Of a DNA stretch of 64,000 bases, positions 14,842 through 55,353 are shown piece by piece. The position numbers were made by a program, and so were the translations under genes. The stretch comes from a virus (lineage: Duplodnaviria > Caudoviricetes). The notes beneath the pieces were generated by a model. That model was not told the origin of the DNA, searched no databases, and saw only the letters and a list, made by a program, of their open reading frames with translations. Each line of letters begins with the position of its first letter. Positions within the stretch are counted from its first letter, which is position 1. The stretch is from the IMG/VR virus record IMGVR_UViG_3300042914_002678, one strand, 5' to 3'.

Positions 14842-14865
14842 GTATTACCACACATAAAAAGCAGT

Positions 14866-21172: not shown

Positions 21173-21197
21173 ATAATGCCGTCCAAATAGAATAGAA

Positions 21198-32008: not shown

Positions 32009-32056
32009 AAAAGTGTCACAAGGGGACTTTACAAGTCCCCTTTTTTCATATATACT
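32001..32056 (+). promoter_or_regulatory. Early promoter overlapping a GGGGAC/GTCCCC stem-loop, with degenerate palindromic box
   Basis: GCGGTTGAAAAAGTGTCACA; TTTACA 32028-32033, 17 nt, TATACT 32051-32056. Confidence 0.7.
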
Positions 32057-32077
32057 ACTTTAAGAATATTAAATCCA

Positions 32078-33536: not shown

Positions 33537-34394
33537 ATGAACAAACCTTTACTTAAATGGGCAGGAAACAAGTATAGGGTCCTGCCCTTTCTTATTCCAC
33601 ATATTGGTTACCCAAAGCGTTATTGTGAACCCTTTGGTGGTAGTCTTGCTGTTGCACTGAATACGCCAGCAGAGCAATACATTCTCAACGATGTGAATAA
33701 AGATTTGGTGGCAATCTACCAGAATCTGGTGAATCCAAATGATGATAATTTTATCAAGTATTGTCAAGAACTATTCACCTCAGAAAATAACACCAGAGAA
33801 GCATACATTGATTTGGTAAAACACTTCAATCAGGCAACAGATTCTGTAGAGAGAGCACGATTATTCATCTATCTAAATCGTCATTGCTTCAATGGTCTGT
33901 CAAGATACAACAAAAAGGGTGACTTTAATGTTCCCTATGGTAGAGAGTTTAAAGATAAAAAAACTGGAGAAAAATACATTCAAAGTGCTTATTTTCCTGA
34001 AGAAGAGATGATGAACTTTAGAATGTATTTTCTCACTAAACAACTGGTAAGGTTCACATCACTTTCTTTTGAAGATCCTTCACTTTATGAAGACCTAGAA
34101 GCGGGAGATGTTGTCTATTTTGACCCACCATATGTTCCTGCTTCAGATACTGCTAACTTTACAAGTTATGCTACTGATGGTTTTACTCACGACCAACAGG
34201 TTCAGTTGGCAAACTTAGCAGAATCTCTTGCTGCCAAAGGTATTAAAGTGATTGTGTCCAATCATAATACACCAGTCACACAAGAACTATACAAAAATGC
34301 TACAATCTATCCTATTCAGGTGACTAGAACTATTGCTGCAAATGGCAATAGTAGGAAGAAAGCAGATGAGTTAATCGCTGTGTATTCTTGTTAG
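33537..34394 (+). CDS. dam: Dam-family (D12 class) DNA adenine methyltransferase, probably GATC-specific
   Basis: LKWAGNK, EPFGGS, LNRHCFNGLSRYNKKGDFNVPYG (Dam recognition hairpin), DPPY, SNH. The stop codon lies inside the first repeat copy. Confidence 0.9.
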   Translation: MNKPLLKWAGNKYRVLPFLIPHIGYPKRYCEPFGGSLAVALNTPAEQYILNDVNKDLVAIYQNLVNPNDDNFIKYCQELFTSENNTREAYIDLVKHFNQATDSVERARLFIYLNRHCFNGLSRYNKKGDFNVPYGREFKDKKTGEKYIQSAYFPEEEMMNFRMYFLTKQLVRFTSLSFEDPSLYEDLEAGDVVYFDPPYVPASDTANFTSYATDGFTHDQQVQLANLAESLAAKGIKVIVSNHNTPVTQELYKNATIYPIQVTRTIAANGNSRKKADELIAVYSC

Positions 34395-34434
34395 GATCGT
34401 CTAAAGTGTCCTAGTAATGTAAGCACACAACACA

Positions 34435-34845
34435 ATGGCAACTCGCTCTCGCATCGGTCTTGAACTTTCTGATGGTTCTGTTCTTTCTGTGTATCATCAC
34501 TGGGACGGGATGCCTTCTTGGTTGGGTCGTATTCTCAAAACCCATTACAATAGCAAAGAACTTGTTGCTGAACTGATTGATGGTGGTGATATGAGTTCTG
34601 CCTGGACTAATGCTGGTTGGAATAATGAAACCCGCAAACAAGGTCCACTCTATTATACTGAGCGTGGTGATGAGTTTATTGCTCCTCGTCTTGATAAAGA
34701 TGCTGGTGAGTTTCTGACTAAAGATGCAGAGGAGTATGCCTATCTTTATACTCAAGATGAAGGTTGGTTGTGCTATGATACTTGTGATTGGCGCGATTCT
34801 TACCTTGAGAGCATTGAAATTCCCTCTGGAGCACTTGCTGTCTGA
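34435..34845 (+). CDS. Conserved phage hypothetical protein (MATRSRIG...YHHWDG)
   Basis: ORF track; first gene after repeat copy 1. Confidence 0.7.
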   Translation: MATRSRIGLELSDGSVLSVYHHWDGMPSWLGRILKTHYNSKELVAELIDGGDMSSAWTNAGWNNETRKQGPLYYTERGDEFIAPRLDKDAGEFLTKDAEEYAYLYTQDEGWLCYDTCDWRDSYLESIEIPSGALAV

Positions 34846-34848
34846 TCT

Positions 34849-35419
34849 ATGAAAACTTCTACTGCTCTTGGTGTTGTCTTCTTTGCAATCGTCATTGTTG
34901 TTGTTTCTGTTTTATTTGAAGCATGGTTGCTTGGACTGATTCTGTCTTGGTTTAATGTATCCTTGACCTTCTGGCAGAACCTTGCTATTGTGGTTCTTGC
35001 TAATATGATTTTCAAAAACTCTGGGGGTTCTTCCAAATGAATCGCAAGTACATCGCCGTATTTGCAATAGGTTTTCTTGCCATTATTGGTTGGAATATCT
35101 TTCTAGTTCAACGCGATGATCGAATGTATGATGCTTACTATCGCACAAAAGCGATAGAAAACCTCAAACAACCTCCTAGTAATCAAATTAGGTGATTTAC
35201 TTTCTTCTCATCTCTGCAGCATTTGGATGGTTCTTCTTCGTACTATTCTCCAAACACTTTGACTACCTAGATAAACGCAAATGATTTCTAAACTCCTTCG
35301 TGAACTGATTATGAACGCTGAACGTGAAAAGATTGCCCGTGAGTTCTGGGAAGAGATTGAACGTGAAGCAGCAAAACTTGAGATTCCTGTAGACTACTAC
35401 CTCGCGGAGTTTTATTGAT
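34849..35419 (+). CDS. Small hypothetical ORFs, several hydrophobic
   Basis: ORF track and hand reading. Confidence 0.5.
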
Positions 35420-35543
35420 GACTTTTATTCTTGGAGTTGGAGTTGGTGTTCTCATCACAGTGGGATTTGCACTTCTATCTGTTGCATCCGATGCTGATGA
35501 TGTGATTGGCAAAGATGACGAAAACTACTACAATAAATAATAA

Positions 35544-35598
35544 TGCCTGCGTTGGGTGCAATCTTCACAGGTAGAGGAGGGGCAGAGATGCTCCTTTT
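35544..35598 (+). ncRNA. Candidate antisense sRNA C upstream of a GIY-YIG gene
   Basis: ATAAATA 35533-35539; stem TGCCTG/CAGGTA; terminator AGGGGCA-GAGA-TGCTCCT-TTT; GTTGGGTGCAAT is complementary to leader ATTGCACCCAAC 35613-35624. Confidence 0.5.
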
Positions 35599-35602
35599 CT
35601 TG

Positions 35603-35610
35603 TATAAATA
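35603..35610 (+). promoter_or_regulatory. T4-type late promoter TATAAATA
   Basis: Exact consensus upstream of ATG 35636. Confidence 0.75.
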
Positions 35611-35635
35611 CTATTGCACCCAACAAAGAGCAGTT

Positions 35636-36337
35636 ATGACTAACAAAGGCAAAATTTATTGTGCCCATTGTATTTTTACTGGAAAGAAATACATAGGACA
35701 AACAAAACAAAAATTACTTTGCGATAGAATAGCAACTCATTTTGCAGATGCTAATAAAAATCATAGTAATGGTAAGTTTCAAAGAGCACTAAAAAAATAT
35801 GGAAGAAGTGGATTTATATGGGGAGTAATTGAAGAGTGTGATTTTGATACGTTAAATGATAAAGAAATCTATTGGATTGCAGAATACAAAACTGTAGAAA
35901 AGGGATATAATCTGTCTCCTGGTGGTGGGCAACCTCCAGAATATTTTTCTAAAGAATATTTGGTAGAAGAACCAAGTGGCAATAGAAAAGAAATTAAGAA
36001 TCTTTCGCAATATTCTAGGGAAAATAACTTAAATGCCGCACATATGCACGAAACACTTTATGGTAAAAGGTTGCACCATAAAGGATATAAACTTATACCA
36101 AGAACTGATGTAGAAATTGAAAGATATGAAAATGAAAGAAGTATAAGAGAGGATACTAGTAGAAAAGGAGCGCCTGGAGAAAAAAATGGTAGAGCGATAC
36201 TTGATTGGGACAAAGTTAATGAAATAAGAAAATTACATAATACCAAGAAATATAAAAATCAAGAAATATCAAATATGTTTGGAATTAAAAAAGTAACATT
36301 AGAAAAAATAGTCTCCAATAAACTGTGGACAGTTTAG
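35636..36337 (+). CDS. GIY-YIG homing endonuclease; true start probably ATG 35636, not 35543
   Basis: KIYCAHCIFTGKKYIGQT...DRIATH...EIYWI...GYN motifs. The late promoter lies inside the longer ORF-track version. Confidence 0.85.
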   Translation: MTNKGKIYCAHCIFTGKKYIGQTKQKLLCDRIATHFADANKNHSNGKFQRALKKYGRSGFIWGVIEECDFDTLNDKEIYWIAEYKTVEKGYNLSPGGGQPPEYFSKEYLVEEPSGNRKEIKNLSQYSRENNLNAAHMHETLYGKRLHHKGYKLIPRTDVEIERYENERSIREDTSRKGAPGEKNGRAILDWDKVNEIRKLHNTKKYKNQEISNMFGIKKVTLEKIVSNKLWTV

Positions 36338-36377
36338 AAACCGAACACTTGACTTTTGCCCATAAAACTTTTATGAT
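36327..36377 (+). promoter_or_regulatory. Early promoter with degenerate palindromic box
   Basis: GGACAGTTTAGAAACCGAACAC; TTGACT 36349-36354, 17 nt, TATGAT 36372-36377. Confidence 0.7.
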
Positions 36378-36392
36378 GTATCTGTTAAACAA

Positions 36393-37969
36393 ATGAGGTT
36401 AATGGCACAAAAGTTTCTCTATATCTTGGACTATTTCGTTCCACAGTTTCAATCGGAATATGGTGGATTGCTCAACGTAATCGCAGAAAATGATGAAGAA
36501 TGTTTTGATGTTGTTGTTGAATGGGATAATGAAACCTGGACAGAATACTACAGCAAACTACGAGAAAACATTGTAAAAGCACAACGCTTTCCTCTTCTTG
36601 AAAACGAAGAATCCCGAGTTGTTGAATCTTTTACCACCTGATGATTGAAACTTCAATAAATCGTCTTGAGTTTAACTTAAAACAGCAGTATCAAGAACGT
36701 ATTACTCATCTTCAGCAAAAGATTACGGAGCAACAACATGAAATCTTGCGACTCCAAGAGCAAATCAAATACATGTCAAAAGACAGATTTTACGATTGCT
36801 GAGTTTCCGCATCATCCGCCCGAAGGTTATAGTTATGAGTTTGAAGAGTTCAAGCGTGGTGTGGTCGCTGTTTGGTTGCGTTGCCATCGTAAGTTTGACT
36901 ACAATAATGGTGCCACAACTCGTACCATTTGGGGATTCTATAAATCCAAAACCAGAGAATACTTCGCCCCAGTCAATAGTAAGACCATCGGTGCTTGTGT
37001 AAATATCAAGGACACGCGGAACTATACCGCGATGCCGATTAAACTTTCACCACTAGAACTTGCATTTGTATGACCTACGAACCACAAGTCAATGATTATG
37101 TAAAATGGACAAAAGGAGTTGAGGGTTGGGTTTACTTTAAGGATAAAGAATACATTACCATTGAGTATAGTGTTCGTCCTAAAGATGAAGTCAACCTTGA
37201 GTGCTGCCCTATCCATAAGAATGAGAGATTACTTGTGATTTGTTATAATGAGCAATGGAAAGAGTTGGAGTACATTACGTCACGAAAATCAATCTATGAA
37301 GAAACAGAAAAATGCTTGGCGATTGCTTGCTAAAGCACTGGGAGAAAAAGCAAGTAAATGTGATAAAGAGGCGGATAGGGTTGCACTTATCCGCCTTGTG
37401 ATGTTTCTGTCTATTCTTATTACCAACTGTTTCATTGTTGCTAATGCTATCAGGCATTGGAATGATAAAACAGAAATCTATTTGATTATTGATGAGAATT
37501 ATGTGCCAAATAGTGGAGTATTAAAGTTAGGATCGTCTAAAGTGTCACTATAATGTAAGCACAGAATCTATGGACTGCTACGACGACATCCAAATTGAAG
37601 AATTGCAAAACTTTGATTTCGTTGGAGAAGATTTGATTGATTTGATTGAAGAAAACAACGATTTCAACATCAAAGATTACATCAACGGCAACTACGATTA
37701 CTGAGTGACAGTTTCCAAACTGTCCACTAAATCACCCACACACCTCTTTAATCCTTTATTATTCTCAAATGACTGAACACATCCCTAACGTGCTGTCTCA
37801 CATTCAAGAACTGAAAGAAACCTGGCGTCGTCAAGATTTCACGTTCACTAAACAGCAACAAGAAGAATACGATCTCTTGCTTGCTACTCGCCGCGAACGT
37901 GTTAAGCAATTCTATGCTGAGGGTCGCGTCTTTAAGGGTTCCTATAAAGCAAAGGAAGAGGACATCTAA
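36393..37969 (+). CDS. Run of small hypothetical ORFs
   Basis: ORF track (36393, 36738, 37070, 37248 with likely start about 37284, 37769). Confidence 0.55.
37707..37727 (+). promoter_or_regulatory. Perfect palindromic box GACAGTT-TCC-AAACTGTC
   Basis: Most symmetric copy of the upstream early-promoter box; precedes ORF 37769. Confidence 0.65.
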
Positions 37970-37998
37970 ATACTAAAAAGTAGTGTTTAGATACTAAA

Positions 37999-38646
37999 AT
38001 GAAAACCTTTCAGGAGTTTATGTCTCTTTGTGAAGCATCTGATGCTGATACTGCAAAGCAACTTGGTTGGGGTGGTGGTGCATCTGTCACCCGCCAAGGT
38101 GAAGGTGGTAGAGTAGGAAGAGAGCGCAAAAAGTCTACTCCTGAAAGACGCAGAGTAAAACACGTTGGTGGTGGTAAAACTGAACCTGTAGATTACAAAC
38201 CACGCAAAGATATTGGTCAACAAAGACAACGTTCTGAGCGTGAACAACAACCAACACAAGAGCGTGGAAGTGCTAGAGAAAGACAACTAGCAGCAGCAAA
38301 AGAAGAAAGAAGAAAAGCAGCACAAGCAAGAGCAGCAGCAAAGAAAGGTGGTGGAGAAACACCTACAGCAGCAAAACCAAAAGCAAAAGAAGTAGCAAAG
38401 ACTGCTACTAAGTTACTTGCAACCAAGAAAGAAAAGAAACCAGTAAGTCCTGACTACAAACCAGCAAAAGCATCTGGTTTGTCTGCAAAAGAAAGAAACA
38501 AGCAGACTAGAGAAGGTGAAAGAATGTTGAGAGGTATAATGAAACAGCAAGAAACTGAGAAGTATAAGAAAGCAACTGGAGAATCGCCAAAAGGTAAAGC
38601 AAAGACCAAGATTCTCGCTCACGTTGAAAAGAGAATGGCAAATTGA
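37999..38646 (+). CDS. Highly basic K/R/A/E-rich protein, probably late-expressed
   Basis: Low-complexity charged composition; late-type TCTAAATA at 37965-37972. Confidence 0.6.
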   Translation: MKTFQEFMSLCEASDADTAKQLGWGGGASVTRQGEGGRVGRERKKSTPERRRVKHVGGGKTEPVDYKPRKDIGQQRQRSEREQQPTQERGSARERQLAAAKEERRKAAQARAAAKKGGGETPTAAKPKAKEVAKTATKLLATKKEKKPVSPDYKPAKASGLSAKERNKQTREGERMLRGIMKQQETEKYKKATGESPKGKAKTKILAHVEKRMAN

Positions 38647-38687
38647 GTTGCCATTAAAGTTAGGATCGCTCAAAGTGTCCTAGTAGT

Positions 38688-39184
38688 ATGACTGATGCCT
38701 TCGCTATGGACCGAATTGAAATCCAACGCAAACTCTATGATGCTCGCAATGAGTATCTGAAGGCAAAGAAGTCTATGGAGTTTTGGAAACGTGAAATCTC
38801 CTTCCTGAAAGAGTGTGAAGACAACCTCAAAAAAGGTCGCACTGGAGATTGGTTATTTGATGAAATGTTTGGCGATACTCCTATTGCTGAAGAAGTCTAC
38901 GGCGGTTGATTGACTGCTACTAGCACCCTCTAGAATCGCCTAGAAGGGTGCTATTCTTGTCTTTAGATACCAAACCACTGAGAACAATGAGTTACATTCA
39001 AATCCCTGATTTTGTGTTTGATAGCATCATCAACAACCTACAAAGAGGTTATGCTGTGTGTGATGCAGTAGACCATAACTCTGAAGAAATAGAGAAGTCA
39101 CCATCCTATGCAACTGGGTACAGTCGTGCTACAATAGCAAGTGTACTTGAAGACCTGAAGCGATACAAACAAACTGTGAATTAA
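38688..39184 (+). CDS. Two small hypothetical ORFs separated by a hairpin (38921-38953)
   Basis: ORF track; TAGCACCCT...AGGGTGCTA inverted repeat. Confidence 0.55.
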
Positions 39185-39216
39185 AGTTAGGATCGTCCAA
39201 ACTGTCCCAATACTAG

Positions 39217-40461
39217 ATGATGATACCAATGCAAATCCAACTCCGCCCCCATCAAGAACGTGGTGTTGCTGCTATGCAGAAGCACAACAAAGGTCAAATC
39301 ATTGTGCCTACTGGTGGCGGCAAGACTCTCAAGATGATCTATGATGCTCTGCGACAGTTGCAGTCTGAAACTCCGCAGACCATTGTTGTAGTTGCTCCGC
39401 GTATTTTGCTTGCTGAGCAACTCTCTTCTGAGTTTCTTGAGTTCATCACTAATGCTAAAGTCTTCCACGTCCACAGTGGAGAAACTCACCACGAATCTTC
39501 TACTCGCCCTCAAGAGATTCGCAACTGGGTTGAGCGCAATGCTGGCAATCATCGCCTGATTGTAACCACCTACAACTCTCTGTCGCGTCTTCAAGTGGCA
39601 GAGATTGATGTGGATACGATCTACTTTGATGAGGCACATAACTCTGTTCAGCGTCACTTTTTCCCTGCAACTGAGCACTTCTCTGCTAACGCAAAGCGTT
39701 GCTACTTCTTTACCGCAACTCCAAAGCATAGTCTTGCTGTTGGCAAACCTGGGATGAATGATGCTGCTGTTTATGGTCAGGTCATCTGCAAAGTTCCTGC
39801 TCCTGAGTTGGTTGAAGGTGGTTACATTGTGCCCCCTAAAGTCATCGTCAAGCAACTTGCTATGGTGACTGGAAAGCAGACCAACTTTGACCGCGACGCG
39901 GAGAATCTGCTGGAAACGATTGACGACAACAAAGTCGGCAAGATTCTGATTTGTGCTAAGGCAACCAAGCAGATTGTCTCCCTGGTGTCTGAAACTGATT
40001 TCTGCACTCAACTAGAGTTTCGCGGATACTCTTGGATGTATATTACTGCCAAGACTGGAGCAGTCATTGATGGTCGCAAAGTGAACCGTGAGGTATTCTT
40101 TGACACCCTATCTGCCTGGGGCAAAGACAACTCCAAGAAGTTTGTGGTTCTGCATCATAGCATCCTCGCAGAAGGCATCAACGTCAGCGGTCTGGAAGCA
40201 GTGCTGTTTCTTCGCAACATGGACTTCATCGGTATCTCCCAGACCATTGGACGTTGCATCCGTTTGCATCACGATGATGCCAAAGGTATGCGCGATGGAC
40301 GTATTGAACCTGGCAACCTGAGTCAGTATAGCAAATCGTTCGGTCTTGTGTGCATCCCTGTCTACAGCAAGGTTGGTATTGCTACTGCCCGCAGTGTTCA
40401 GTCGGTTGTTGACACTATCTTCCAGAAGGGCGAACCTGCCATCTCTGTGGTGAGGCGGTGA
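39217..40461 (+). CDS. SF2 DEAH-box helicase, copy 2 (start may be ATG 39229)
   Basis: LRPHQ, PTGGGKT, DEAHNS, FTAT, EGINVS, QTIGRCIR; colinear with 12312-13544. Confidence 0.9.
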   Translation: MMIPMQIQLRPHQERGVAAMQKHNKGQIIVPTGGGKTLKMIYDALRQLQSETPQTIVVVAPRILLAEQLSSEFLEFITNAKVFHVHSGETHHESSTRPQEIRNWVERNAGNHRLIVTTYNSLSRLQVAEIDVDTIYFDEAHNSVQRHFFPATEHFSANAKRCYFFTATPKHSLAVGKPGMNDAAVYGQVICKVPAPELVEGGYIVPPKVIVKQLAMVTGKQTNFDRDAENLLETIDDNKVGKILICAKATKQIVSLVSETDFCTQLEFRGYSWMYITAKTGAVIDGRKVNREVFFDTLSAWGKDNSKKFVVLHHSILAEGINVSGLEAVLFLRNMDFIGISQTIGRCIRLHHDDAKGMRDGRIEPGNLSQYSKSFGLVCIPVYSKVGIATARSVQSVVDTIFQKGEPAISVVRR

Positions 40462-40579
40462 GTCTCACCCGAGACTCAAGTGCTGGTCATGGGTCAAACC
40501 CTGATTTTTTTGCAATTCTACCTGGAGGGTGTCATAGGTTATCCTCCGCAACCAAATCAACGATTTTTTTGAAAGTATA

Positions 40580-40756
40580 ATGAAAGAAGGATTTACAATG
40601 TTCAAAGACACCTATGCTGCTGTTCCTTATGGTAATCAACTGATGGTCATTCACAACGGAGAGCAACTCAAAGTGTGCAGGACCGAAGCATCAGCTAGAA
40701 AGTTCATTGATGACCACAAAAAAGGTAAATCAATGGCAAAACTTCCTGTCAATTAA
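40580..40756 (+). CDS. 58-aa hypothetical protein, paralogue of 13720-13953
   Basis: Hand translation MKEGFTMFKDTYAAVPYGNQLMVIHNGEQL...; stop TAA inside repeat copy 5. Confidence 0.7.
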   Translation: MKEGFTMFKDTYAAVPYGNQLMVIHNGEQLKVCRTEASARKFIDDHKKGKSMAKLPVN

Positions 40757-40786
40757 AGTTAGGATCGTCTAAAGTGTTCCCATAGA

Positions 40787-41542
40787 GTGAGTGCTCCCAC
40801 AATGCAACAAGTAATCAAGCAACTGATTGAGGATTGTACCTCTCATCTTCCTAAAGCATTGCGATGGTACACTGATGTCAACCAACCGATTAAGGTGATT
40901 GATGATACCCTCAGTGAGGTCATCCACGCATACTGCCACAACACAAGATGTGGTGGTTCTGGTGGTGGTGGATGGGACCACGTTGATAATGGCGAAGACA
41001 AGAATAGTTCGCACATTCAATCCTACATCTGCCCTGATTGTGGTAAGAAAGTAGTATTCTTTGCTGAGCAATGCCCCTCTTGTGGTAGTACAAAGCGCGG
41101 TAAGATTCCTCACGATGGACGTTGGGGAATCAGTGCATCTTCTCACTTTAAGTGGTATGATGAACTAAAAGAATACCGACTCCAACTGATTGAACCTCTG
41201 ACAGATGATGCTTCTTGTCGTCAGTTTCGCCTGCGTTATTGGGTGCTTGCTAAAGACTCTGAGCACCTGAATCTTTATGCAAAAGCACAACTAGAGAGTC
41301 CAAAGTCTAATCACATCAACTTCCAACCATTGAAGGTTGATTTCTACCTGAGTCGCCCTATTCTCAAGTATGATGGTGTACTCACCATCCACGATGATCG
41401 TACTCAATTTGAGTTTGATTTCTTTGATTTGGATAACCAAACTCCTGAAGAAATCCCTGTAGAGTATGCTGGTGCAAACTCCCAAACTGTGGTAGAATCT
41501 AAGAAACTTGGCAAGGAGCGTGGAGAATGGGTGAGGAACTAA
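40787..41542 (+). CDS. Putative restriction-type endonuclease with Zn ribbon
   Basis: CPDC...CPSC; GWD...GEDK resembles a PD-(D/E)xK core; overlaps the downstream methylase by 16 bp. Confidence 0.4.
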   Translation: MSAPTMQQVIKQLIEDCTSHLPKALRWYTDVNQPIKVIDDTLSEVIHAYCHNTRCGGSGGGGWDHVDNGEDKNSSHIQSYICPDCGKKVVFFAEQCPSCGSTKRGKIPHDGRWGISASSHFKWYDELKEYRLQLIEPLTDDASCRQFRLRYWVLAKDSEHLNLYAKAQLESPKSNHINFQPLKVDFYLSRPILKYDGVLTIHDDRTQFEFDFFDLDNQTPEEIPVEYAGANSQTVVESKKLGKERGEWVRN

Positions 41543-42450
41543 TTTACAAGAATCAAGACTGTATTGAGTTCCTCCAGTCCCTAGAAAGTAGGTCTGTAGA
41601 TTTAATCTGTACAGACCCACCTTACTATCGTGTTGTCAACGATGAGTGGGACAATCAGTGGTTCACTATAGACCAATACTACGAATGGTGTGAGCAGTGG
41701 ATTACTGAGTTGGGTAGAGTTGCCAAGTGGGGATGTAGTTTCTGGTTGTTTGGTTTCCCACAACAACTCTGCAATCTTCTGCCTGTGATTGAACGTGCTG
41801 GATTCACATTCCGTCAGCAGATTGTAGTGAACAAAGGGATGCAAGCAGTTGCAGGTAGAACAAGTGATAAACTTAAAATGTTTCCTACTGCCACCGAATC
41901 TATCTTCTTCTTTCACTATGAAGCAAGAGATTACATCCGTGATTTACTACAGGCAGAGCGTAAAAGATTGGGGTGGAAAGGTTGCGACGTGAATGGATTT
42001 CTTGGTAAAGCAACAACAGGTGGTGGCACATTTGCTTGCATTGCATCCGAAAAGAAACCACGGGAGCATAGAGTCTACCCTACCAGAGATGATTGGACTA
42101 AGTTACAAGAAGTAATGAATCTTCCTGAGTATGATGAACTGGTCTACACATTTAATTTACAGCGAGGTCTGACAGATGTGTGGGATGACATCAACTTCTA
42201 TGACCGCAAAGTTGAGAAGTTCCATAGCACACAGAAACCTATTCCGTTAATGGAAAGGTTAGTGCTTACTTCATCCAAACCAGGGCAAACAGTTCTTGAC
42301 ATTTTTGGTGGATCAGGTTCTACTGGTGTTGCTTGCAAAATGCACGGAAGAAAGTTCGTTGGTTGTGAAGTTGATGAGACATACTATCAGAAGTCACTGC
42401 AAAGAATTGAAAGCACAGAAAAACAGTCAACTCCTATTGATTTCTTCTGA
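41527..42450 (+). CDS. Beta-class N6-adenine/N4-cytosine DNA methyltransferase
   Basis: DCIEFL...DLICTDPPY near the N-terminus, HSTQKP, and VLDIFGGSGSTGVA...FVGCE SAM-binding motif near the C-terminus. Confidence 0.9.
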   Translation: MGEELIYKNQDCIEFLQSLESRSVDLICTDPPYYRVVNDEWDNQWFTIDQYYEWCEQWITELGRVAKWGCSFWLFGFPQQLCNLLPVIERAGFTFRQQIVVNKGMQAVAGRTSDKLKMFPTATESIFFFHYEARDYIRDLLQAERKRLGWKGCDVNGFLGKATTGGGTFACIASEKKPREHRVYPTRDDWTKLQEVMNLPEYDELVYTFNLQRGLTDVWDDINFYDRKVEKFHSTQKPIPLMERLVLTSSKPGQTVLDIFGGSGSTGVACKMHGRKFVGCEVDETYYQKSLQRIESTEKQSTPIDFF

Positions 42451-42485
42451 ATTAAAGTTAGGATCGTCCAAACTGTCCCAATAGT

Positions 42486-43409
42486 ATGAGCAAGCAACCA
42501 ATGCAGAACAAGCACCTAGAGCATCCTGAAGATGAGATCCTGACGGGCAATCTGTCAGTTCTGGATTGGTTCTCTGAGGTAGATTCTACCATCAGCATCA
42601 AGATGGATGGTGCGCCTGCTATCGTTTGGGGAACTAATCCTCAGAATGGTAAGTTCTTTGTTTGCACGAAAGCAGCATTTAACAAGAAAAAGATTCGCCT
42701 TTGCTATAACGAGGATGACATCTTCACTCATTTCGGTGGACAACCTCGTGTAACTCAAATCCTCATTTTCTGCCTGGATTTTCTGCCTCGCACTAAGCAA
42801 GTGCTGCAAGGTGATTGGATTGGTTTTGGTAGTGGGTTGGATACATTTACTCCCAATACAATTACCTACAAGTTCCCTGCACCAGTTCGTCAGGACATTA
42901 TCATTGCTCCGCATACAATCTACAGCGGTTCTGATGACATCCGTGAGATGATTGCTGCTCCTCTGCAATCCAAACTCATTAGCACTAAGCATTGCCTGTT
43001 TGTGCAACCTGAAGTGGAACTGAACCCTTATCGTGAAGATTTGGAGGATGTGTGTAAGTTTGCCAAGCAAATGAGCACTCTGTGTGAGTTTGTGACGCCG
43101 AACAAAGCAACACAAATCAAAAAAGAGATTAACGCTTGCATCAGGGAGCAAATCCCCGTGAATGAAAATGAAATTGCAGAAAAATGCGATTGTGACATCA
43201 ACCTGATTCGTTTGTGGAAACTCGTTGCATCTATCAAGGAAGATTTGTTCCTGTTCATTCACGAGAAGGATGAGATTGAGTGTTACATTCACGATGTGCA
43301 ATCCTTCCACGAAGGTTATTGTATCACCAACAAACACGGCATTTATAAAGTCGTTGATCGTGAAGTATTCTCTCATGCCAACTTCACCATCGCTAAGAAT
43401 TGGGGTTGA
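42486..43409 (+). CDS. Conserved cyanophage-type protein with a KxDG motif (possible ligase/nucleotidyltransferase-like fold)
   Basis: NKHLEHPED...SIKMDGAPAIVWG...QGD...HEGY...YKVV. Confidence 0.45.
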   Translation: MSKQPMQNKHLEHPEDEILTGNLSVLDWFSEVDSTISIKMDGAPAIVWGTNPQNGKFFVCTKAAFNKKKIRLCYNEDDIFTHFGGQPRVTQILIFCLDFLPRTKQVLQGDWIGFGSGLDTFTPNTITYKFPAPVRQDIIIAPHTIYSGSDDIREMIAAPLQSKLISTKHCLFVQPEVELNPYREDLEDVCKFAKQMSTLCEFVTPNKATQIKKEINACIREQIPVNENEIAEKCDCDINLIRLWKLVASIKEDLFLFIHEKDEIECYIHDVQSFHEGYCITNKHGIYKVVDREVFSHANFTIAKNWG

Positions 43410-43444
43410 ATTAAAGTTAGGATCGTCCAAAGTGTTCTAGTAGT

Positions 43445-43879
43445 ATGACAACCACAACTTTCGCAGAATACGCTGCACAAGCAGAAGCAAAACAAAACAT
43501 TGCTAATGCTGTTCTAGCACATACTTACGCATTGTGTGAAGCATTGCGTCAAAACTACATCGACTATTCTATTCGTAGTCATCAACTTCGCACTTCTGAT
43601 GTAGAGTATCATGATGCACAGATTGCTAAACTTAAGCAAGGAACTTGTGATTATGATTTCTACCCCGAGACTGGTAGAAAGTATCATAAAGTTATTCTGA
43701 ACGCTGCTGGATCTCGTTCGGTTCATTGTTTCATTGACAAGCAAACTGGTGAGGTTTATAAGTCTGCCAGTTGGAAGTCTCCTGCCAAAGGTGTACGTTA
43801 TGACCTGCGAATCATAGAGCAACGTGAATGGTTGCTTGAACATGCAGATTGGGCAGGTGCCTATCTTTACCAGCGTTGA
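43445..43879 (+). CDS. Conserved phage hypothetical protein (GRKYHKV...VHCFID...YKSASWKSPAKGVRY)
   Basis: ORF track; starts at the end of repeat copy 7. Confidence 0.7.
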   Translation: MTTTTFAEYAAQAEAKQNIANAVLAHTYALCEALRQNYIDYSIRSHQLRTSDVEYHDAQIAKLKQGTCDYDFYPETGRKYHKVILNAAGSRSVHCFIDKQTGEVYKSASWKSPAKGVRYDLRIIEQREWLLEHADWAGAYLYQR

Positions 43880-46122
43880 TGTATCTTCAAACCCAAATCT
43901 TTTCCTTAATGGCTGACTACCAACAAGAAATTAAAGACCTAACAGTAACACGTTCCCTGCGTCTGCTGCGTGATGGTTTCAAGAGTGATTTTGCGACCTT
44001 TGCTTATGCTGATGAGAGAATGAACACTCTTTTGCAACAACTAGCAGCAGAGTTTGTTGATGCCAACATTCCGATTGTTGATGAGGATGTTGAGGTTGAC
44101 TTGGCACTGATGCTGATGGAATCTGTTGACATTATTGCACGATGACTTACTCCAACCTCTCAAAGATTCGTCCTAAATTGAGGACACAAGGCAACATCAC
44201 TGGTAACTTTGGACGTGCTAAATCTAAGGCAGGTTCTCCACTCAATGACATTGGTGGTGATGGTAACATAGGAGCAACACAAGATGAATACCTAAACCGT
44301 CTTTATTATGCTTTTGATAACACTACCGAACCTAAACTTCGTCAGTTCATTTATCAGGAAATCCGTAAAATCCACATCCAAAGAGGCACCTGGTAATGCA
44401 AATCCTCTTGAATTAAAGTTAGGATCGTCCAAAGTGTCCTAGTAGTATGAGCAACACTAACATCGTTTCCGAAATCTACTCCTACCACACGAATTGGAAG
44501 GAAGGTAAAGTCAACCAGATGTGGATTGAGCAGTCTGGTGATGAATACAAAGGTTATTCCTATGTCGCTGTTGCACACAATCCCCGCAATGGTAAGACGA
44601 TGGAAATGTCCAACCCTCGCACATCTTACCAGGAAACTCTAAACTGGGTTCGTGGTTGGTGTGGAACTTTCTGTGTTCTTCCTGCCTGATTGATTATGAC
44701 TATCCTAGCAACTGACATTCTCCTGCTACTCAACAAAGTACAGCAACTTGGTGCCACTTATAACATCAATCAGAATGATGATGGGTTTATTGTAGAAATC
44801 CGTTATAACTGGTGGGATGATAATGAATGGTATTCCAATAAACTTTTCATCACAAATGAGAGTGAATCTACTTGGCAAGAAGGTGATTATGAGTTTAGCA
44901 ACATGATGACTATTCTTGATGAGAAACTAGAAGAGCAAAGGCAAAAAGAAGAAAAGGCACAAAAGCGTAAAGAACTCATCAATTCTCTCACACCTGAACA
45001 GCGCGAACTTCTAGGAGTTTAAGTAATGAAAAACTATCGCGTTCGAGTTGAAACCTATGATGGATGTGTGACCATTTGGTATGAGAAATCCAAGGCAAAG
45101 ACTGCGGACAAACTTATACTCAATCGCGTCTACAATCAACTCTGTGGTCTAAACATCAAAGAAATCTCTGTTAATCCTTCTGTATGAAATACGTTGTTGA
45201 ACTCTACATTGGTGGCAAAGTCTTCAAGGAAGAAGTGTATGCTACCAACCCAAAAGATGCGCGTGAAACTGCCATTGCTCGCAATCCTACCGCAAAAGTT
45301 GTTGGTGTCAACGTAAGTTTCAAGTAATTAAAGTTAGGATCGTCGAAAGTGTCCTAGTAGTATGAGCAAAACATTCACCGTCCGTTTCGTATCCGATGCC
45401 CTGGATTCTCCAGAATACATTGGACCTTTCTACTCTGAAGATGAGGCACAAGATTATGCTGATGATCGCAACAGTTCTTTAGCATTATCTGGTATTCCTT
45501 CCTCTGTTGCTTGTTACTCTGTTGTTGACTGATTATGAGAACTCTTACACTCCAAGTCACCGAAGTTACATTTGATTTTGATGACGAAGATTTCACCGTA
45601 GAAGAACAACAATCGGTCATCAATTCTGTTGTTGGTAATGTCTTTGAGGTTGAAGTTGATGATGACGATGATGATGAAGCAATCGCAGATGTGTTAGTTG
45701 AAGAGGTGACAGATTACACTGGTTGGTGTGTTTTTTCCCTTGATTTTGTCCACGTTCTGAATACTCATTGAAATGAGAATTGCTCTTTTGATTGCTACTC
45801 TTGCACTCGGTCTTAAAGTAGGTTTAGCAGCACATGCTACCGTGAATGTGTATCAAGAACAGCAAGCAGAAAAGTTCTGCCAAATTGACCCTAACTATTG
45901 CAACGCAAAATGACTCTTTCCTCTGACCAACTTTCCAAACTTGTTCAACTTTATGCTGAGCGAGTTGTTGATAGCATGGATGTGCGCGATTTGTGTGCAT
46001 TTGCCATTGATACAATTTGTGACAACATGCACGACTATAATGAGTCTGAATTGATGGAAGAATTGTCACACTATTATGAAGAAGATGAACTCAACGAACT
46101 GGTTGAATCTGTAAAGGATTAA
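43849..46122 (+). CDS. Run of small hypothetical ORFs within repeat-bounded modules
   Basis: ORF track plus hand-read 45184-45327 and 45362-45532. Confidence 0.55.
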
Positions 46123-46169
46123 AGTTAGGATCGTCCAAAGTGTTCTAGTAGTATCAGCACCGAACCACA

Positions 46170-46760
46170 ATGAGCAAACTAACAACGAATGAGGTTTATG
46201 GCAAACTGAAAGTAACTGATTTCAGTGTATTTGAGAAACCTGGAAAGAACAAAGGTGCTCGTGGGCAACTGTTAGAAATTGCCCTTGGAGTTCCTAACTC
46301 TTCTGACCTGCAAGATCTGGAAGATGGAGAGATTAAGACTTTCACGATTGGTGAAAGCATTGCAGCAACACAGTTGAAGCATTGTTTGTCTGAAATCATC
46401 GAAGATTCTGTATCTTTTGAGAATAGCAAAGTCGGGCAGAAACTGAAGCAAACTCTTTATGTTGGTTTCACCCGTAGCAATGATTATGTCGGTTGTGCTG
46501 TACTGAATGAAGAAACTGATCCTCAGCACTATAACGAATTGCGTGAGGATTATGAGTTCATTTGTAACAGCATCCGCACACTTTTCAATGCTGGCAAAGA
46601 ACTTTCTACCATCACTGGACCTCACGGATTGCTGCAGATTCGCACCAAAGCATCTAAAACCAACGGTCGCTATGTACCTCTGACCTTTGCAGGTGTGACC
46701 CTGAAGGATAAAGGAATGGCATTTTATTTGTGTGGACAATTCGGACGCAATCTGTTCTGA
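46170..46760 (+). CDS. MutH/Sau3AI-family endonuclease
   Basis: NKGARGQLLEIALG..NSSD..D...GEIKT matches the MutH KG..G.LLE..LG...D.....ELKT pattern; LLQIRTKAS and AFYL match the MutH C-terminal LQIRPKA and FYL motifs. Confidence 0.75.
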   Translation: MSKLTTNEVYGKLKVTDFSVFEKPGKNKGARGQLLEIALGVPNSSDLQDLEDGEIKTFTIGESIAATQLKHCLSEIIEDSVSFENSKVGQKLKQTLYVGFTRSNDYVGCAVLNEETDPQHYNELREDYEFICNSIRTLFNAGKELSTITGPHGLLQIRTKASKTNGRYVPLTFAGVTLKDKGMAFYLCGQFGRNLF

Positions 46761-46795
46761 ATTAAAGTTAGGATCGTCTAAAGTGTCCTAGTAGT

Positions 46796-48778
46796 ATGAG
46801 CATCACACTTGACCTTGAAATGGCATCCGAACTAATCGGATTTATGAATGACTTTCCTGTTGCAGATTTGAATGATTGTGTAGACTTCATCTGTGACAAG
46901 TTTGACATCTCTGCATCTGATGAGTTGATTGATGCTATCGCTGACTTTTTCTTTGCTAACTGATAACAAATGACACACTACAATCCTTATGTTCAAAACC
47001 TGATTGAGATGGGTTATGATGAGCAAGACTGCCGTAATGTTGCTGCAGTTGGTGAAACAAACGTAACCTATCCGCGTACCATTCACTGCCGCACATTTGC
47101 AACTGAAAGTGAATACAAGGAAGCACTTGCTGATTTCATCAATGGAATGTAATGAGTCGCAAAACTTTAACATTCAAGTCACCTTGTAAAGTGAAGACAA
47201 TTCTTCTCATTTTCATTGTTGCGTTTATACTTTCACCAGGAGTTCGTAACACTACCTCAAGCACATTGCACACTGTAGCAGACATTATTTCAACCAATGA
47301 TTGAAACTCAATTCTTTATTCTTGATGCTGAACAATTCCAAGAATACACACAATTAGCAGATGAGGTTGGTGTTACATTAGACTATTATTTGTCTGAGTT
47401 TTGTGATGTCGAAGGACCAACCATTACTAGCAATTAAAGTTAGGATCGTCGAAAGTGTCCTAGTAGTATGAGCAACACTTCAATCAACTACAATCTCATC
47501 AAGCAACAACTTGGCACTGTTGTGATTGATAGCAACTGGAAAGAATACGTCGTTTCTGATTATAAGATTGGATGCGATGCTTACCAACTCTGGAACAAAG
47601 AAGAGCAGCAGTATTATTATACTGACTACAATGCCTTCAATGCACTTTTCACTCAAATCTCTGGTTGATTTCTAACACAAACACAATGACTCAAACTGAC
47701 ATCAACAATGCAATCAATGCTGCATTTGATAATCTTTTCTCACTGAATGAGCAGTTGTTTGATTATTGGTATTGGGAACTTCACAAGACTAATGATTACC
47801 CAATCTCTGAGCGTTGGAATGAACAAACACTGTATCAGATGGAGAAGGATGTGATGATGAACTCCTGAGGCAATTAAAGTTAGGATCGCCCAAAGTGTCC
47901 TAGTAGTATAAGCACAACCACAAAACCACAATGCGAGTCATCGAAAAGCAAATGAATGATGCAATCTCTCAAGAGATTGATTGGAAGAAAGATAACACTG
48001 AAGTTATCAACATTGAAGGTGTATCTTTTGTCTATCTGTATAACAATCTGATTGCAATGGTTGCTGATACTTGGTTGGAATTGTTTGATGGCGGACATAA
48101 GACTGCAACCACCAAGTCTCGCCTTAATGCTATTCTCCAAGCACATGGAAATGGAGAGTACATTTTCCAGAAAAACTTTGAGTGGATTGTTTATACCAAT
48201 CAAACCAATGTTCCTTTCAACAATGGTATCAAACTGAACTGATAATACAATGACAAAATCGTTCAAAAAGTTCATCTGGAAAGACTCTAACTCTGACCAA
48301 ACAAAAGTTATCATAGCAAGGTCAGAATACTCAGCAAGGAAACAAAACTTTGGCAATCTTGCTGGTTATCTTTACTCTCACTCTGTTCCTCTTAAATGAC
48401 ATTCACGATTCGCTATTTCACTCCTTATCAGCAACAGTGGAGGACGCAAAGTTTCTCTACATTAGAAGAGGCAGAACGCATGGTTGAGTTTTACAAATCG
48501 TGTGGAAGTCCTGCTGAATTGGTCAACAACTAACTCTCTCAATGTTACTCTCCAAGTCTTCATTCAACGACCAAAAAGTTCTTCCTTTCATTGTTAAGAA
48601 AGAAGCAAAAAGAACTGAAGATGGTGTCTACTCTCTACACCTATTCTCCCGAATTGTGATGACTAAGGAAGGGAAGAAGTATAGGTATCTACCTCTTAAG
48701 TTTGAAGGTGAGTTAGCAATGTTCCGTAAAAGAAGGGATGCAGAAGATTATGCAAGGTACAGATTAGCACTTGATTGA
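46796..48778 (+). CDS. Run of small hypothetical ORFs (46796-46963, 46970-47152, 47297-47437, 47468-47668, 47665-47868, 47931-48242, 48542-48778)
   Basis: ORF track and hand translation. Confidence 0.55.
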
Positions 48779-48896
48779 ATACACATAGGGAGCAATCATC
48801 AGCATCCTTTTTTTATGCTTATTTGAGTGATTTATAGTAAAAAAACAATAAAAAACGATTAAAAATGTATTAAAAAATGTATTTGAGTGTTGTAAA

Positions 48897-49027
48897 TCAT
48901 TCTCAATAAGTTATAGTTTATTGAGAATCATTAGGGGTTATTATTGAGAATGAGGAGGGCATTTATGACCAATTAAATGTGCTCAGACCTTGTGTTTATA
49001 GTCAATTAAATGTGCTCAGACCTTGTG
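48897..49027. repeat. Iteron-like cluster: three copies of TTATTGAGAAT (one inverted) and a 25-bp direct repeat
   Basis: ATTCTCAATAA 48899-48909, TTATTGAGAAT 48918-48928 and 48941-48951; CAATTAAATGTGCTCAGACCTTGTG at 48970-48994 and 49003-49027. Confidence 0.85.
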
Positions 49028-49142
49028 ATCTTAGCGTGCATGATAACACGACCCCGCAAAAATGTCAAGACCCCCCGCGTTCTCAAATCCCCACAATCCC
49101 CCCGCACAAATACCCCACCCCATCATAAATACACCCTAGGAC

Positions 49143-49171
49143 TTGACACAAACACCAGAGCATCTTACAAT
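49143..49171 (+). promoter_or_regulatory. Near-consensus sigma70 promoter
   Basis: TTGACA 49143-49148, 17 nt, TACAAT 49166-49171; gene start ATG 49199. Confidence 0.75.
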
Positions 49172-49198
49172 ACCTCTATACACATTCGGAGCGTACTT

Positions 49199-50308
49199 AT
49201 GTCAGTTGCTTATCAGACAGCACAGAAGCAGCGTTATAGAATCACTCTGGATCTATCAGTGTTCGGTGACTTCGACCCACACCAGATTGACTGGGAGAAG
49301 TTATTCAAGTTGGAACCTGCAGAGAAGTGTGATGCCTACGTTGAGGACCTAAGTGTACCTGACCGCTGGTGATGTGTAGGGGAATTAAAGTTAGGATCGT
49401 CCAAAGTGTCCTAGTAGTATGAGCACTCCTACCCGCTACAACTTCCAGACTGGGCAATACGAACCACTGCCCGATTATCTACTCAATTCCCCCAATTATC
49501 ACGGGGACTTTGATGACAACTGGACCGCTGATGATTATGATCGTCGCCGTGCGGAACGTGATGGTTGGACCTCTCAAGTTTGGGACGGTCGCTGACTCTA
49601 ACTCTTTCGTCCTTAATTAACACTCACTCTTCAAAAATGACTGTCACTTATCAGCGTAATCTACTCTCCACTGAGTATAACGGTTGGGAGAATTATGAGA
49701 CCTGGAATGTTGCTCTCTGGATTAACAATGATGAGGGTTTGTATCACCTCGCTATGGAAGTTGGCAACTACGTTGACTTCATTGATCTGCTGAATGATCA
49801 GGGTATTGTTAGCACTCCTGACGGGGTTAAGTATAACGACCCCGGGGTAAATGTGGTCCAATTGAATAGCGATGTGTTCGACCTCTGATTAACACATAAG
49901 ACACACACAGTTATTAACACTCTCATGCGTTACATTCCACAGTCTAAGTATTCGTTTGATGAGATCTGTAAGCAATGCTCAGATGCCATCAATCGTCCTT
50001 CAAGTGTGAACATCAAACCCATCACAGTTTCTTATGATGAGGTGCGTAAGTTTTACCACTACAGCAACTCTCTGCTAGTCGCACGGTAAGCATCACACAA
50101 GGGAATAAGATGCGCCCTATAAAGACACTTACTTGACACACAGTTTCTTACACTTTTCTTCTTTATTATGACCAAGCAAGTTCTCACCTCTCTGCTTGCC
50201 CAAGGTAACACTGGCACTGAGATTCTGTCCATTCTGGATGCAATCGTTGCTGAGCAATCCTCTGAGCAGGGTTATAACGAACCCACTGCAGATAGCATCG
50301 AGTTCTGA
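49199..50308 (+). CDS. Small hypothetical ORFs (49199-49372, 49419-49595, 49637-49888 with YNGWENYETWNVALW, 50168-50308)
   Basis: Hand-refined starts from the ORF track. Confidence 0.55.
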
Positions 50309-50318
50309 TACTAACTGT

Positions 50319-50346
50319 GTGCCCCTTGGTTGACACTGAGGGGCAC
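50319..50346 (+). terminator. Stem-loop closing the early island
   Basis: GTGCCCCT / AGGGGCAC inverted repeat after the last small ORF. Confidence 0.5.
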
Positions 50347-50696
50347 TTATGTTATTATGCGTTAATGTAGTCGTTTGGCAGTTAATTGCGGGCGGTTGTT
50401 ATAGGCGCGTGGCGGCGTTGCGTTATAAAAAACCCAAACTACCCTAACCTACAGAGGTGACAAAACGCGAACGATATATCAATCTCAAAAAAATTTTCCG
50501 GAAGTATGATTAGTCTTAAAAACCCCCGCAGATATACACGGAGGGCACCATATTGGAATTTTTGGAAGGTTGTATTGGCGGGATGGATGATTCGTTATCC
50601 ACGCCCCTTTTTTGTTGCACTAGGATTTTGTGTGGTTGTGATATATAATGCGGTATCAAAATAAGATCGAAAGAAAAAATTCCGGAGATATTTTTT

Positions 50697-50897
50697 ATGA
50701 CTCATAACGAAAAAATATATCACATCTATGCAAAGGATAAGTGTATCTTTCATTCTCTGAGAGAGGAAGAGTTTGATACAACATGGAATACTTTGAAGAA
50801 TCTTGTTGGTCTAATGAAAACTGATTATAGTGAAAGTGATTTAAGTTATGAGGAACTCTTAGTAAACAAGAAGGTGGTTGGCGATTCTTCTTATTGA
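50697..50897 (+). CDS. Small hypothetical protein
   Basis: ORF track. Confidence 0.55.
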   Translation: MTHNEKIYHIYAKDKCIFHSLREEEFDTTWNTLKNLVGLMKTDYSESDLSYEELLVNKKVVGDSSY

Positions 50898-50923
50898 CAA
50901 ACACATATATAGACTGTTAAAAT
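50894..50923 (+). promoter_or_regulatory. Sigma70-like promoter
   Basis: TTGACA 50894-50899, 18 nt, TAAAAT 50918-50923, preceded by TGT (extended -10). Confidence 0.6.
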
Positions 50924-50947
50924 TGAACTTGATGGTTGATTTAACTT

Positions 50948-51715: not shown

Positions 51716-51728
51716 TTAGGAGATTATT

Positions 51729-51869
51729 ATGGCAAAGGGCGGATCTAATAAAGTACTTTTTCAACCTGGAGCACCAAAGAAAACTCGCCAAGGACGCTCC
51801 CCTCGCACATTACTGAGTCCAACTTCTCGTAATGGACGCAAGAAAAAATATCGCGGTCAAGGCAAATAA
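51729..51869 (+). CDS. 46-aa basic protein (..RKKKYRGQGK)
   Basis: Hand translation; GGAG ribosome-binding site upstream. Confidence 0.65.
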   Translation: MAKGGSNKVLFQPGAPKKTRQGRSPRTLLSPTSRNGRKKKYRGQGK

Positions 51870-51876
51870 TATAGAT

Positions 51877-51903
51877 AAAGCAGGAAGCAATTCCTGCTTT
51901 TTT
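51877..51903 (+). terminator. Rho-independent terminator
   Basis: AAAGCAGGAA-GCAA-TTCCTGCTTT followed by a T run. Confidence 0.75.
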
Positions 51904-51913
51904 ATTAGGTGTT

Positions 51914-52844: not shown

Positions 52845-52870
52845 TAAATAAGGTAGAATTGTAATATTCA

Positions 52871-53272: not shown

Positions 53273-53274
53273 AA

Positions 53275-55335: not shown

Positions 55336-55353
55336 TAAAAGTAAGATAGTAAA

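Follow-up and report, generated by a model that had tools for sequence, protein, structure and literature searches.

A two-part junction repeat with a lineage-specific box in the variable region of a subset of T4-like cyanophages

Organization of the repeat array

The virus record IMGVR_UViG_3300042914_002678 (Duplodnaviria; Caudoviricetes) was analysed over a stretch of 64,000 nt (the window). This stretch is a portion of the genome of a T4-like Synechococcus myovirus that occurs in lake metagenomes and has no close cultured relative. An island of genes at 34–50 kb, all on the plus strand, is divided by a repeat whose core, GTTAGGATCG, occurs in 14 exact copies, all on the plus strand (34390, 37526, 38659, 39186, 40758, 42457, 43416, 44418, 45333, 46124, 46767, 47439, 47879 and 49390). 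Each copy lies between plus-strand genes, and all have the same orientation. When aligned with their flanks, the copies share ~44 nt, and their consensus agrees with the string given in the initial annotation, a reading of the letters alone that had proposed a 14-copy repeat in one orientation with an invariant core. By comparison, 1.9 copies of GTTAGGATCG with at most one mismatch are expected by chance; the maximum in shuffled sequences was 6, and 0 of 100 shuffles reached 14. The copies form a discrete family and not the upper end of a continuum: a weight matrix built from them scores them at 54–81 bits, all other sites of the window on either strand score below 15 bits, and the scan of both strands of the 64 kb found no weaker copies.

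Positions within the repeat are numbered from the G of GTTAGGATCG, which is 0. In 9 of the 14 copies, the stop codon of the preceding gene overlaps the repeat or lies directly next to it (TGA at −9 to −7 or TAA at −4 to −2), and in 10 of the 14 the next open reading frame (ORF) begins with an in-frame ATG or GTG located at the 3' end; our recount gave the same figures as the initial annotation. A D12-class (Dam-type) N6-adenine DNA methylase gene (33537–34394, plus strand; PF02086, E = 1e-57) ends inside copy 1 (34383–34426), and its end replaces the AT-rich 5' part of that copy. The first two copies have no ATG at +29, and the next genes start at +45 after copy 1 and at +44 after copy 2 (37519–37562). 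Copy 3 (38652–38695) has two in-frame ATGs, at +29 and +47, and the ortholog in the related contig L010 starts at the one at +47.

Copy 4 (39179–39222) is located upstream of a superfamily-2 helicase gene (39217–40461, plus strand), which is conserved in all relatives as the anchor module of the array; this copy is interrupted by an HNH endonuclease gene in the near-identical contig L014. Copy 5 (40751–40794; GTG at +29, ATG at +44) and copy 6 (42450–42493; ATG at +29 and +44) form the left and right borders of the most variable slot. In the window, this slot is occupied by a plus-strand module (40787–42450) that encodes a 251-amino-acid protein with a weak zinc-ribbon match and an N6_N4 DNA methylase and is otherwise found only in L026 among the comparison contigs. 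Copy 6 precedes the DUF6267 gene (42486–43409, plus strand), a conserved single-gene module named the KxDG gene in the initial annotation, and copy 7 (43409–43452) provides the +29 ATG at which the DUF7717 gene starts, with no alternative start codon.

An ATG at +29 is also present in copy 8 (44411–44454), which is near consensus, and in copies 9 (45326–45369), 11 (46760–46803) and 12 (47432–47475). Copy 10 (46117–46160) lies upstream of a gene for a protein of predicted MutH/Sau3AI fold (46170–46760, plus strand; 196 amino acids), a single-gene module that starts at +46. Copy 13 (47872–47915) is followed by a gene start at +52, and copy 14 (49383–49426), the last of the array, is the best match to the consensus. 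The modules that had been proposed from the letters, namely the helicase with small ORFs, the 251-amino-acid protein with the N6_N4 methylase, the DUF6267 gene and the MutH/Sau3AI-fold gene, are real units. The G+C content of the array region (38000–50000) is 40–45%, as compared with 32–38% in its flanks.

A two-part element with a lineage-specific box

A pattern search of IMG/VR yielded 177 copies in 40 related viral contigs or loci (numbered here with the prefix L), with a single orientation within each locus. Across 129 distinct contexts, positions −6 to +19 are conserved at 94–100%, except for the two-state positions +12 and +16. Positions +20 to +24 are variable, whereas T25, A26, G27, T28 and T30 are conserved at 88–98% (T25, A26 and T30 at 95–98%); +31 is G or A, and +32 to +36 read AGCAC. 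Farther upstream, the sole standouts are AA at −18/−17 and TT at −15/−14. The repeat represents the form that a two-part element, common to a subset of T4-like cyanophages, takes in this phage. An AT-rich stretch at −7 to +2, usually bearing the stop codon of the upstream gene, leads into a lineage-specific GC-rich box of ~10 nt at +3 to +12, which in this phage reads GGATCGTC(C/T). The box is followed by a universal 3' half, AAAGTGT-N5-TAGT(A/G)T(G/A)AGCAC, in which TAGT(A/G)T occupies +25 to +30.

Searching metagenome contigs with the 3' half only (AAGTGT, five free bases, TAGTRTRAGCA) returned at least 120 loci, and more than 50 metagenome contigs, counted without redundancy, contain the element family. 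In the loci returned, this 3' half follows GC-rich boxes of ~10 nt that differ in sequence, including GGATCC.., CTCACCTC, GGGGGGACGTG, CTGGGCCCCTG, CTGAAGCCTCT and GGGGCCTTC, with an AT-rich stretch 5' of each. The GATC core is one lineage's form of the variable box and not a general feature of the element, because the boxes of most lineages contain no GATC. Boxes differ at 0.89 of 9 positions within contigs as compared with 4.09 of 9 between contigs, a contrast reached in 0 of 1000 permutations. One orthologous gene stands behind different boxes in different contigs, and in L002 the modules are ~85% identical to those of GATC-box contigs, yet the boxes are nearly all of the GGGGCC type. Lone elements with a foreign box occur inside otherwise uniform arrays (L002, L007/L030/L039, L151 and L024), for example one CTCACC among GATC boxes and one GATC among GGGGCC boxes, and are candidate scars of exchange between lineages. 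A match between such a box and modules imported from that box's lineage is suggestive for L030 only, in a biased sampling.

Arrays of the element, confined to one strand, are also found in two cultured marine phages, with 10 copies in S-SM2 (42.7–57.1 kb) and 11 copies in SynMITS9220M01 (36.3–50.0 kb); a count by strand gave 11 forward and 0 reverse in S-SM2 and 12 forward and 0 reverse in SynMITS9220M01. In the window and in both of these phages, the arrays are restricted to the helicase-to-baseplate variable region. The two records annotate the array region as coding sequences alone, with no regulatory feature, and annotated starts coincide with the +29 ATG in S-SM2 (49307–61335) and SynMITS9220M01 (40125–52158), for example SSM2_070, SSM2_075 and SynMITS9220M01_060. 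When the repeat was used as a 45-nt query, none of 50,697 records of cultured phages matched. Syn9, Bellamy, S-CREM1, S-SRM01 and S-CRM01 lack the universal half, which in Syn9 does not rise above chance level. No description of the element was found in the searched literature, which excluded Doron et al. 2016, and the family is widespread and apparently undescribed. What is new is its construction from two parts, with a box that is uniform in each genome and specific to the lineage, together with the built-in start codon and the breadth of the family, which includes two cultured phages. In both S-SM2 and SynMITS9220M01, a strong hairpin is found in the leader of ~100–150 nt that follows the element in front of the helicase.

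Module replacement at the repeats

Each locus was cut at its repeats, and the pieces were clustered into a module map. The map is largely collinear, with replaced modules. The slot that separates the helicase module from the DUF6267 module is occupied by any of five different contents or left vacant: the 1.66-kb unit in the window, two other modules in L010, a third kind in L018 and L024, and 3 kb in L026, whereas in L036 it is empty and a single repeat joins the helicase and DUF6267 neighbours. At base resolution, homology ends inside the repeats, stopping at +19 to +33 of the left copy and resuming at −6 to −10 of the right copy. Furthermore, one module precedes its neighbour in L034 and follows it in L010.

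Between 31% and 40% of homology-block ends fall within repeats, which make up 6.4% of the sequence. Per junction of the window, homology ends in 6.7 comparators at repeat junctions as compared with 3.4 at plain gene junctions (Mann–Whitney p = 0.006, with comparators that are not independent of one another). The initial annotation had suggested testing whether gene gain or loss breaks at the repeats in relatives; homology ends at a repeat junction about twice as often as at a plain one, and gene order is not fixed. In total numbers, 102 homology ends lie at repeat junctions, 124 at plain junctions and 72 inside genes.

Two copies from one genome differ at 3.4 of 36 positions, as compared with 4.8 of 36 for copies at unrelated positions in other genomes. 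The copies evolve in concert within genomes, and the uniformity of the boxes within each genome suggests that copies exchange sequence with one another. Public runs containing this phage are available as k-mer contigs (Logan); these contigs often end at repeats and yield no evidence for circles.

In L014 (2985–3550, corresponding to window 39186–39238), the pre-helicase repeat is cut directly after AATTAAAG by an insert of ~560 nt with an HNH endonuclease gene, which is preceded by TATAAATA. Identity between L014 and the window is 99% upstream of the insert and falls to 93% in the helicase downstream of it, the pattern that homing with co-conversion would leave. In the window, a gene for a GIY-YIG homing endonuclease (35543–36337) has no counterpart in any related contig; the homology of the relatives jumps there from ~35512 to 36401, and contigs of two runs have 22 other letters at this site.

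Layout of the 3' half and gene starts

Degenerate copies retain TAnnnT within 3 nt of +25 to +30, and copies with a replaced 5' half still retain the 3' half. Of 126 copies, 69 have an ATG at +29, which is the first codon of a long ORF in 66 cases. In a wider set, 115 of 201 elements with a +29 ATG have a second in-frame ATG at +44 to +56, in 72 cases at exactly +44, and out-of-frame ATGs are nearly absent. Start codons begin sharply at +44 in elements both with and without the +29 ATG.

Two other hexamers were considered as the −10 element. TAGGAT (+2 to +7) would place the start at ~+14 and the +29 ATG on the RNA; other lineages and variants have CTGAAG, TACTCA, TTGGAT or GGGGGG at this site, and it is ruled out as a general −10 because copies with a replaced 5' half keep the 3' half. 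The hexamer nAAAGT (+12 to +17), which would give a near-leaderless RNA, is disfavoured, with most S-SM2 copies reading AAAGCGT and thus having C at +17. Compared by eye, HIP1, NtcA, Pho-box, CRP and LexA sites do not fit the repeat, and the likeness of CCCTATAGT to the reverse strand of T7-type promoters was judged a coincidence.

No RNA structure was detected in the repeat. The TAGGA-N12-TCCTA dyad, which the initial annotation had listed as a feature of the consensus, did not withstand analysis: about half of 55 distinct copies have its two outer pairs disrupted, no compensatory change is seen, and its pairing equals that of a shuffled control. The repeat RNA folds no better than shuffles, and Rfam holds no family matching the repeat. 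In addition, no terminator-like sites were found at the array junctions and no Shine–Dalgarno sequence in the elements, whose leaders are A/C-rich. Metagenome contig ends, taken as transcript starts, show no pile-up.

A probable promoter-type junction as a shared seam

The reading that we favour, with a probability of about 0.55 as a whole, is that the repeat is a phage-specific promoter-type junction that also serves as a shared seam for module exchange. Of this reading, the analysis demonstrates the structure of the element, the existence of its family, the replacement of modules and the uniformity of copies within genomes. Each copy would represent a compact transcription-unit junction, for which we infer promoter activity and a start site from the layout. 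TAGT(A/G)T would act as the −10 element, and transcription would start near +36 to +38, which would put the box at about −34 to −25 and 12 bp from the −10 element, the position of the activator box in T4 middle promoters. The element's own short-leader RNA would serve the gene starts at +44 to +56, while the +29 ATG would be readable solely on RNA running through from promoters farther upstream and would be kept in frame for use on such read-through RNA. Two observations fit this route for the +29 ATG: terminator-like sites are lacking at the junctions, and copies 1 and 2, which open the array, have no +29 ATG.

For the seam, we infer a recombination mechanism that draws on the sequence identity of the copies. 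The copies would offer ~40 nt of near-identity amid diverged or unrelated genes, in which the general recombination of the phage would cross over preferentially. Such crossovers would delete, insert or replace whole modules and would maintain the similarity of the copies within a genome. The simplest account is general homologous recombination in which the copies serve as islands of identity. The initial annotation had described the array as a combination of promoters and recombination sites that works like a distinct gene-cassette system. Our analysis supports the first part, in that the junction position, the orientation, the promoter-like layout and the module replacement at repeats agree with it. 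The distinct cassette system does not follow, as plain junctions are also broken and neither a stem-loop or hairpin nor, among the 20 larger proteins scanned, a recombinase was found.

Several points weigh against the reading of the repeat as promoter-type junction and seam. The hexamer 18 bp upstream of the −10 candidate is TTAGGA in this phage, matching a −35 element at 3 of 6 positions, and GGGGGG (S-SM2) or ACTGAA in other lineages, and a scan with the sigma-70 consensus does not call the repeats. The +29 ATG overlaps the proposed −10 element. It is the sole start of the gene at 43445–43879 and of DUF6267 in L036, S-SM2 and SynMITS9220M01, and the promoter immediately upstream would not serve genes that have +29 as their sole start. 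The leaders of the element's own RNA would be just ~6–10 nt, which is unusually short, and the single RNA run consists of low-coverage contigs of relatives only. As regards exchange, nearly every plain gene junction of the island is also broken in some relative, the interdependence of the comparators reduces the force of the junction test, and the apparent joints at repeats in contigs of run X16 reflect mapping or graph ambiguity and are untrustworthy. The evidence for exchange is comparative, and selection for intact transcription units could also put breakpoints at unit borders.

In one alternative, the repeat would be a repeated promoter and nothing else: the copies would mark transcription units, insertions that respect the borders would survive, and the repeats would play no part in recombination. 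The breakage of almost all plain junctions of the island agrees with such a model, as do the numbers of homology ends at plain junctions and inside genes relative to those at repeat junctions. Homing endonuclease genes explain several of the differences, and the window lacks a repeat present in L010 through a deletion that ends at plain junctions. However, the model leaves unexplained the twofold excess of ends per repeat junction and the ends placed inside the repeat at base resolution. Boxes that are uniform per genome while orthologs elsewhere carry other boxes are likewise hard to obtain without exchange between copies, and T4-type phages do recombine at repeats of similar size (PMC2839356). 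We regard a role restricted to transcription as unlikely.

In a further alternative, the repeat would act at the level of RNA, as a junction on a long polycistronic early transcript and not as a promoter: an intercistronic spacer that stops ribosomes and restarts them at the built-in AUG. In variants of this model, it might be a processing site or an operator bound by a translational repressor, for example RegA. The in-frame +29 ATG in front of a long ORF in nearly all copies that have one suits this model, and stop codons in all three frames lie within −9 to +33 in 191 of 278 elements. Moreover, AGCAC after the AUG is conserved irrespective of the gene, and the stop-to-start distance of ~36 nt is too short for a full promoter and leader. 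Other features are at odds with it. About half of the elements have ATA or GTA for ATG, with the gene starting 15–27 nt farther at a varying distance, which a fixed translation-start site would not tolerate. The lack of a Shine–Dalgarno sequence, of a conserved RNA structure and of an Rfam match gives the model no support, and the lineage-specific GC-rich box has no obvious RNA role. Furthermore, TAnnnT is kept in degenerate copies with shifts of at most 3 nt, which is the behaviour of −10 elements. An RNA-level junction seems improbable, more so than a repeat that acts in transcription alone.

The GATC box, the Dam-type methylase and the MutH-fold protein

MutH and Sau3AI are GATC-specific nucleases. 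The product of 46170–46760 has no sequence match in Pfam or the PDB. In a structural model with a pLDDT of 72.7, its top 11 Foldseek matches among solved structures are all MutH or Sau3AI (best E = 1e-5, probability 1.0), and a D-x6-E-x-K string, a candidate for the catalytic D...E-x-K residues of these nucleases, is visible in the sequence. The gene is located 12 kb downstream of the Dam-type methylase gene. The island contains 34 GATC sites, 14 in repeats and 20 outside, as compared with ~85 expected for the whole island. MutH-like genes occur with GATC-type boxes in 6 of 7 loci fetched irrespective of box type, against a 20% background, an association confounded by relatedness; the helicase and DUF6267 follow the background box distribution, and one MutH-like gene sits in a GGGCCC-box contig.

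Along the window, the depletion of GATC varies: observed and expected counts are 49 and 40 at 1–12 kb (structural genes), 43 and 94 at 12–34 kb, 34 and 85 at 34–50 kb, and 42 and 67 at 50–64 kb. Other 4-nt palindromes are also depleted (ratio of 0.13 for GGCC and 0.20 for AGCT).

A speculative proposal, which we consider very unlikely, is that the box is a specificity site for phage proteins, with GATC being methylated by the phage Dam and nicked by the MutH-fold protein when under-methylated after replication. If this were true, the 44-nt unit would combine a methylation-timed promoter with nick-targeted module exchange between copies, and other lineages would use other pairs of box and enzyme, amounting to a self-addressed gene-cassette system in a lytic phage. 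The simpler reading is that the Dam and MutH-like proteins form a pair that attacks unmethylated host DNA.

Least probable of all is a dedicated cassette exchange, in which a specific enzyme would act on each copy, either an integron-like recombinase or, in this lineage, the MutH-like protein, nicking GATC under the control of Dam methylation: the methylase gene that ends in copy 1, the MutH/Sau3AI fold encoded within the array, the depletion of GATC outside the repeats and the 6 of 7 loci would agree with it, but the repeats are direct and form no hairpin, much turnover occurs away from them, the architecture is the same in the many lineages without GATC in the box, the MutH-like gene of the GGGCCC-box contig and the confounding by relatedness weaken the association, and host attack offers the simpler role for the two enzymes. 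Consistent with the initial annotation, which had seen no recombinase gene, a scan of 20 larger proteins of the window detected no recombinase.

Comparison with known systems

PeSL (promoter-early stem-loop) elements have been described in the T4-type phages RB49/phi1, T4/PST and KVP40/nt-1 (Arbiol 2010, PMC2839356; Comeau 2014, PMC4122927), where recombination between copies has been proposed and partly shown, with mini-circles detected by PCR (PMC2839356, PMC4122927). A PeSL combines a stem-loop (terminator) directly upstream of a sigma-70-like early promoter, whose −35 and −10 boxes are ~17 bp apart, with a Shine–Dalgarno sequence and a start codon at the 3' end. Like PeSLs, the present repeats are short, conserved regulatory sequences placed between small genes in hyperplastic regions. 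As with PeSLs, they all point the same way and extend as far as the following start codon, they are located at insertions, deletions and replacements between relatives, and they need no recombinase of their own. In contrast to PeSLs, the repeat has no stem-loop or terminator part, and the upstream stop codon lies inside it; it has neither a clear −35 element nor a Shine–Dalgarno sequence; and its start codon can overlap the −10-like hexamer. It is also far more tightly conserved, with ~37 near-invariant positions, and is built of two parts with a box that differs by lineage. The repeat works like a PeSL and is not a member of the PeSL family, because the stem-loop is absent and it shows no clear −35 element and no Shine–Dalgarno sequence. 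An earlier study of S-PM2 judged its PeSLs too few for module shuffling (PMC4503421). With the present element, shuffling of modules in the manner of PeSLs is extended to cyanomyoviruses. The element marks the seams of the most variable region in these abundant phages, which helps in reading metagenomic mosaics and in explaining fragmented assemblies.

In T4 middle promoters, a MotA box centred near −30 is combined with a TAnnnT −10 element. The present repeat resembles them in geometry only, with a box of ~10 nt 12 bp upstream of TAGT(A/G)T and no −35 consensus, provided that TAGT(A/G)T is the −10 element. By comparison, its box sequences are unrelated to the MotA box TGCTT and vary between lineages, and the activator of the box is putative. 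Cyanomyoviruses have been reported to lack motA and asiA (PMC2984593; PMC5780444). In T4-like cyanophages without MotA and AsiA, the element provides a concrete handle on the timing of early and middle genes. A box that is uniform within a genome and variable between genomes predicts a co-evolving phage factor or very active gene conversion, and these predictions are testable because two cultured phages carry the element.

Doron et al. 2016 (ISME J) reportedly found a novel, non-sigma-70-like element upstream of Syn9 early genes that is abundant in genomes and metagenomes. The Syn9 element is either different from the present one or diverged from it, because the universal half does not occur in Syn9 above chance.

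Integron attC sites are imperfect inverted repeats that fold as hairpins, with an adjacent IntI integrase (a tyrosine recombinase) and mostly promoterless cassettes. As in integrons, the repeats of the window separate short, single-function, co-oriented modules. Unlike attC sites, they are direct and without conserved pairing, and no integrase is encoded among the 20 window proteins scanned; the array is not integron-like.

Other elements and paralogs of the window

A second junction element is found upstream of the array, in the small-gene region, at 12228–12330, 19886–19960, 21858–21935, 23873–23945 and 31993–32065 of the window and at 5088–5126, 14791–14870 and 15802–15880 of L041. It consists, in order, of CTTGA(A/G)GAACTGGCACA, a GC-rich hairpin with a T run, TATAAT and a start codon ~25 nt later. 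This element also occurs in the marine phage Bellamy and, unlike the GATC repeat, has a true terminator-plus-promoter layout similar to that of PeSLs.

The array helicase (39217–40461) has a paralog at 12312–13544, and both match phrog_16. In addition, a 199-nt repeat (14854–15052 and 21192–21390; 73% identity) marks two paralogous homing-endonuclease-like genes at 14866–15480 and 21198–21863.

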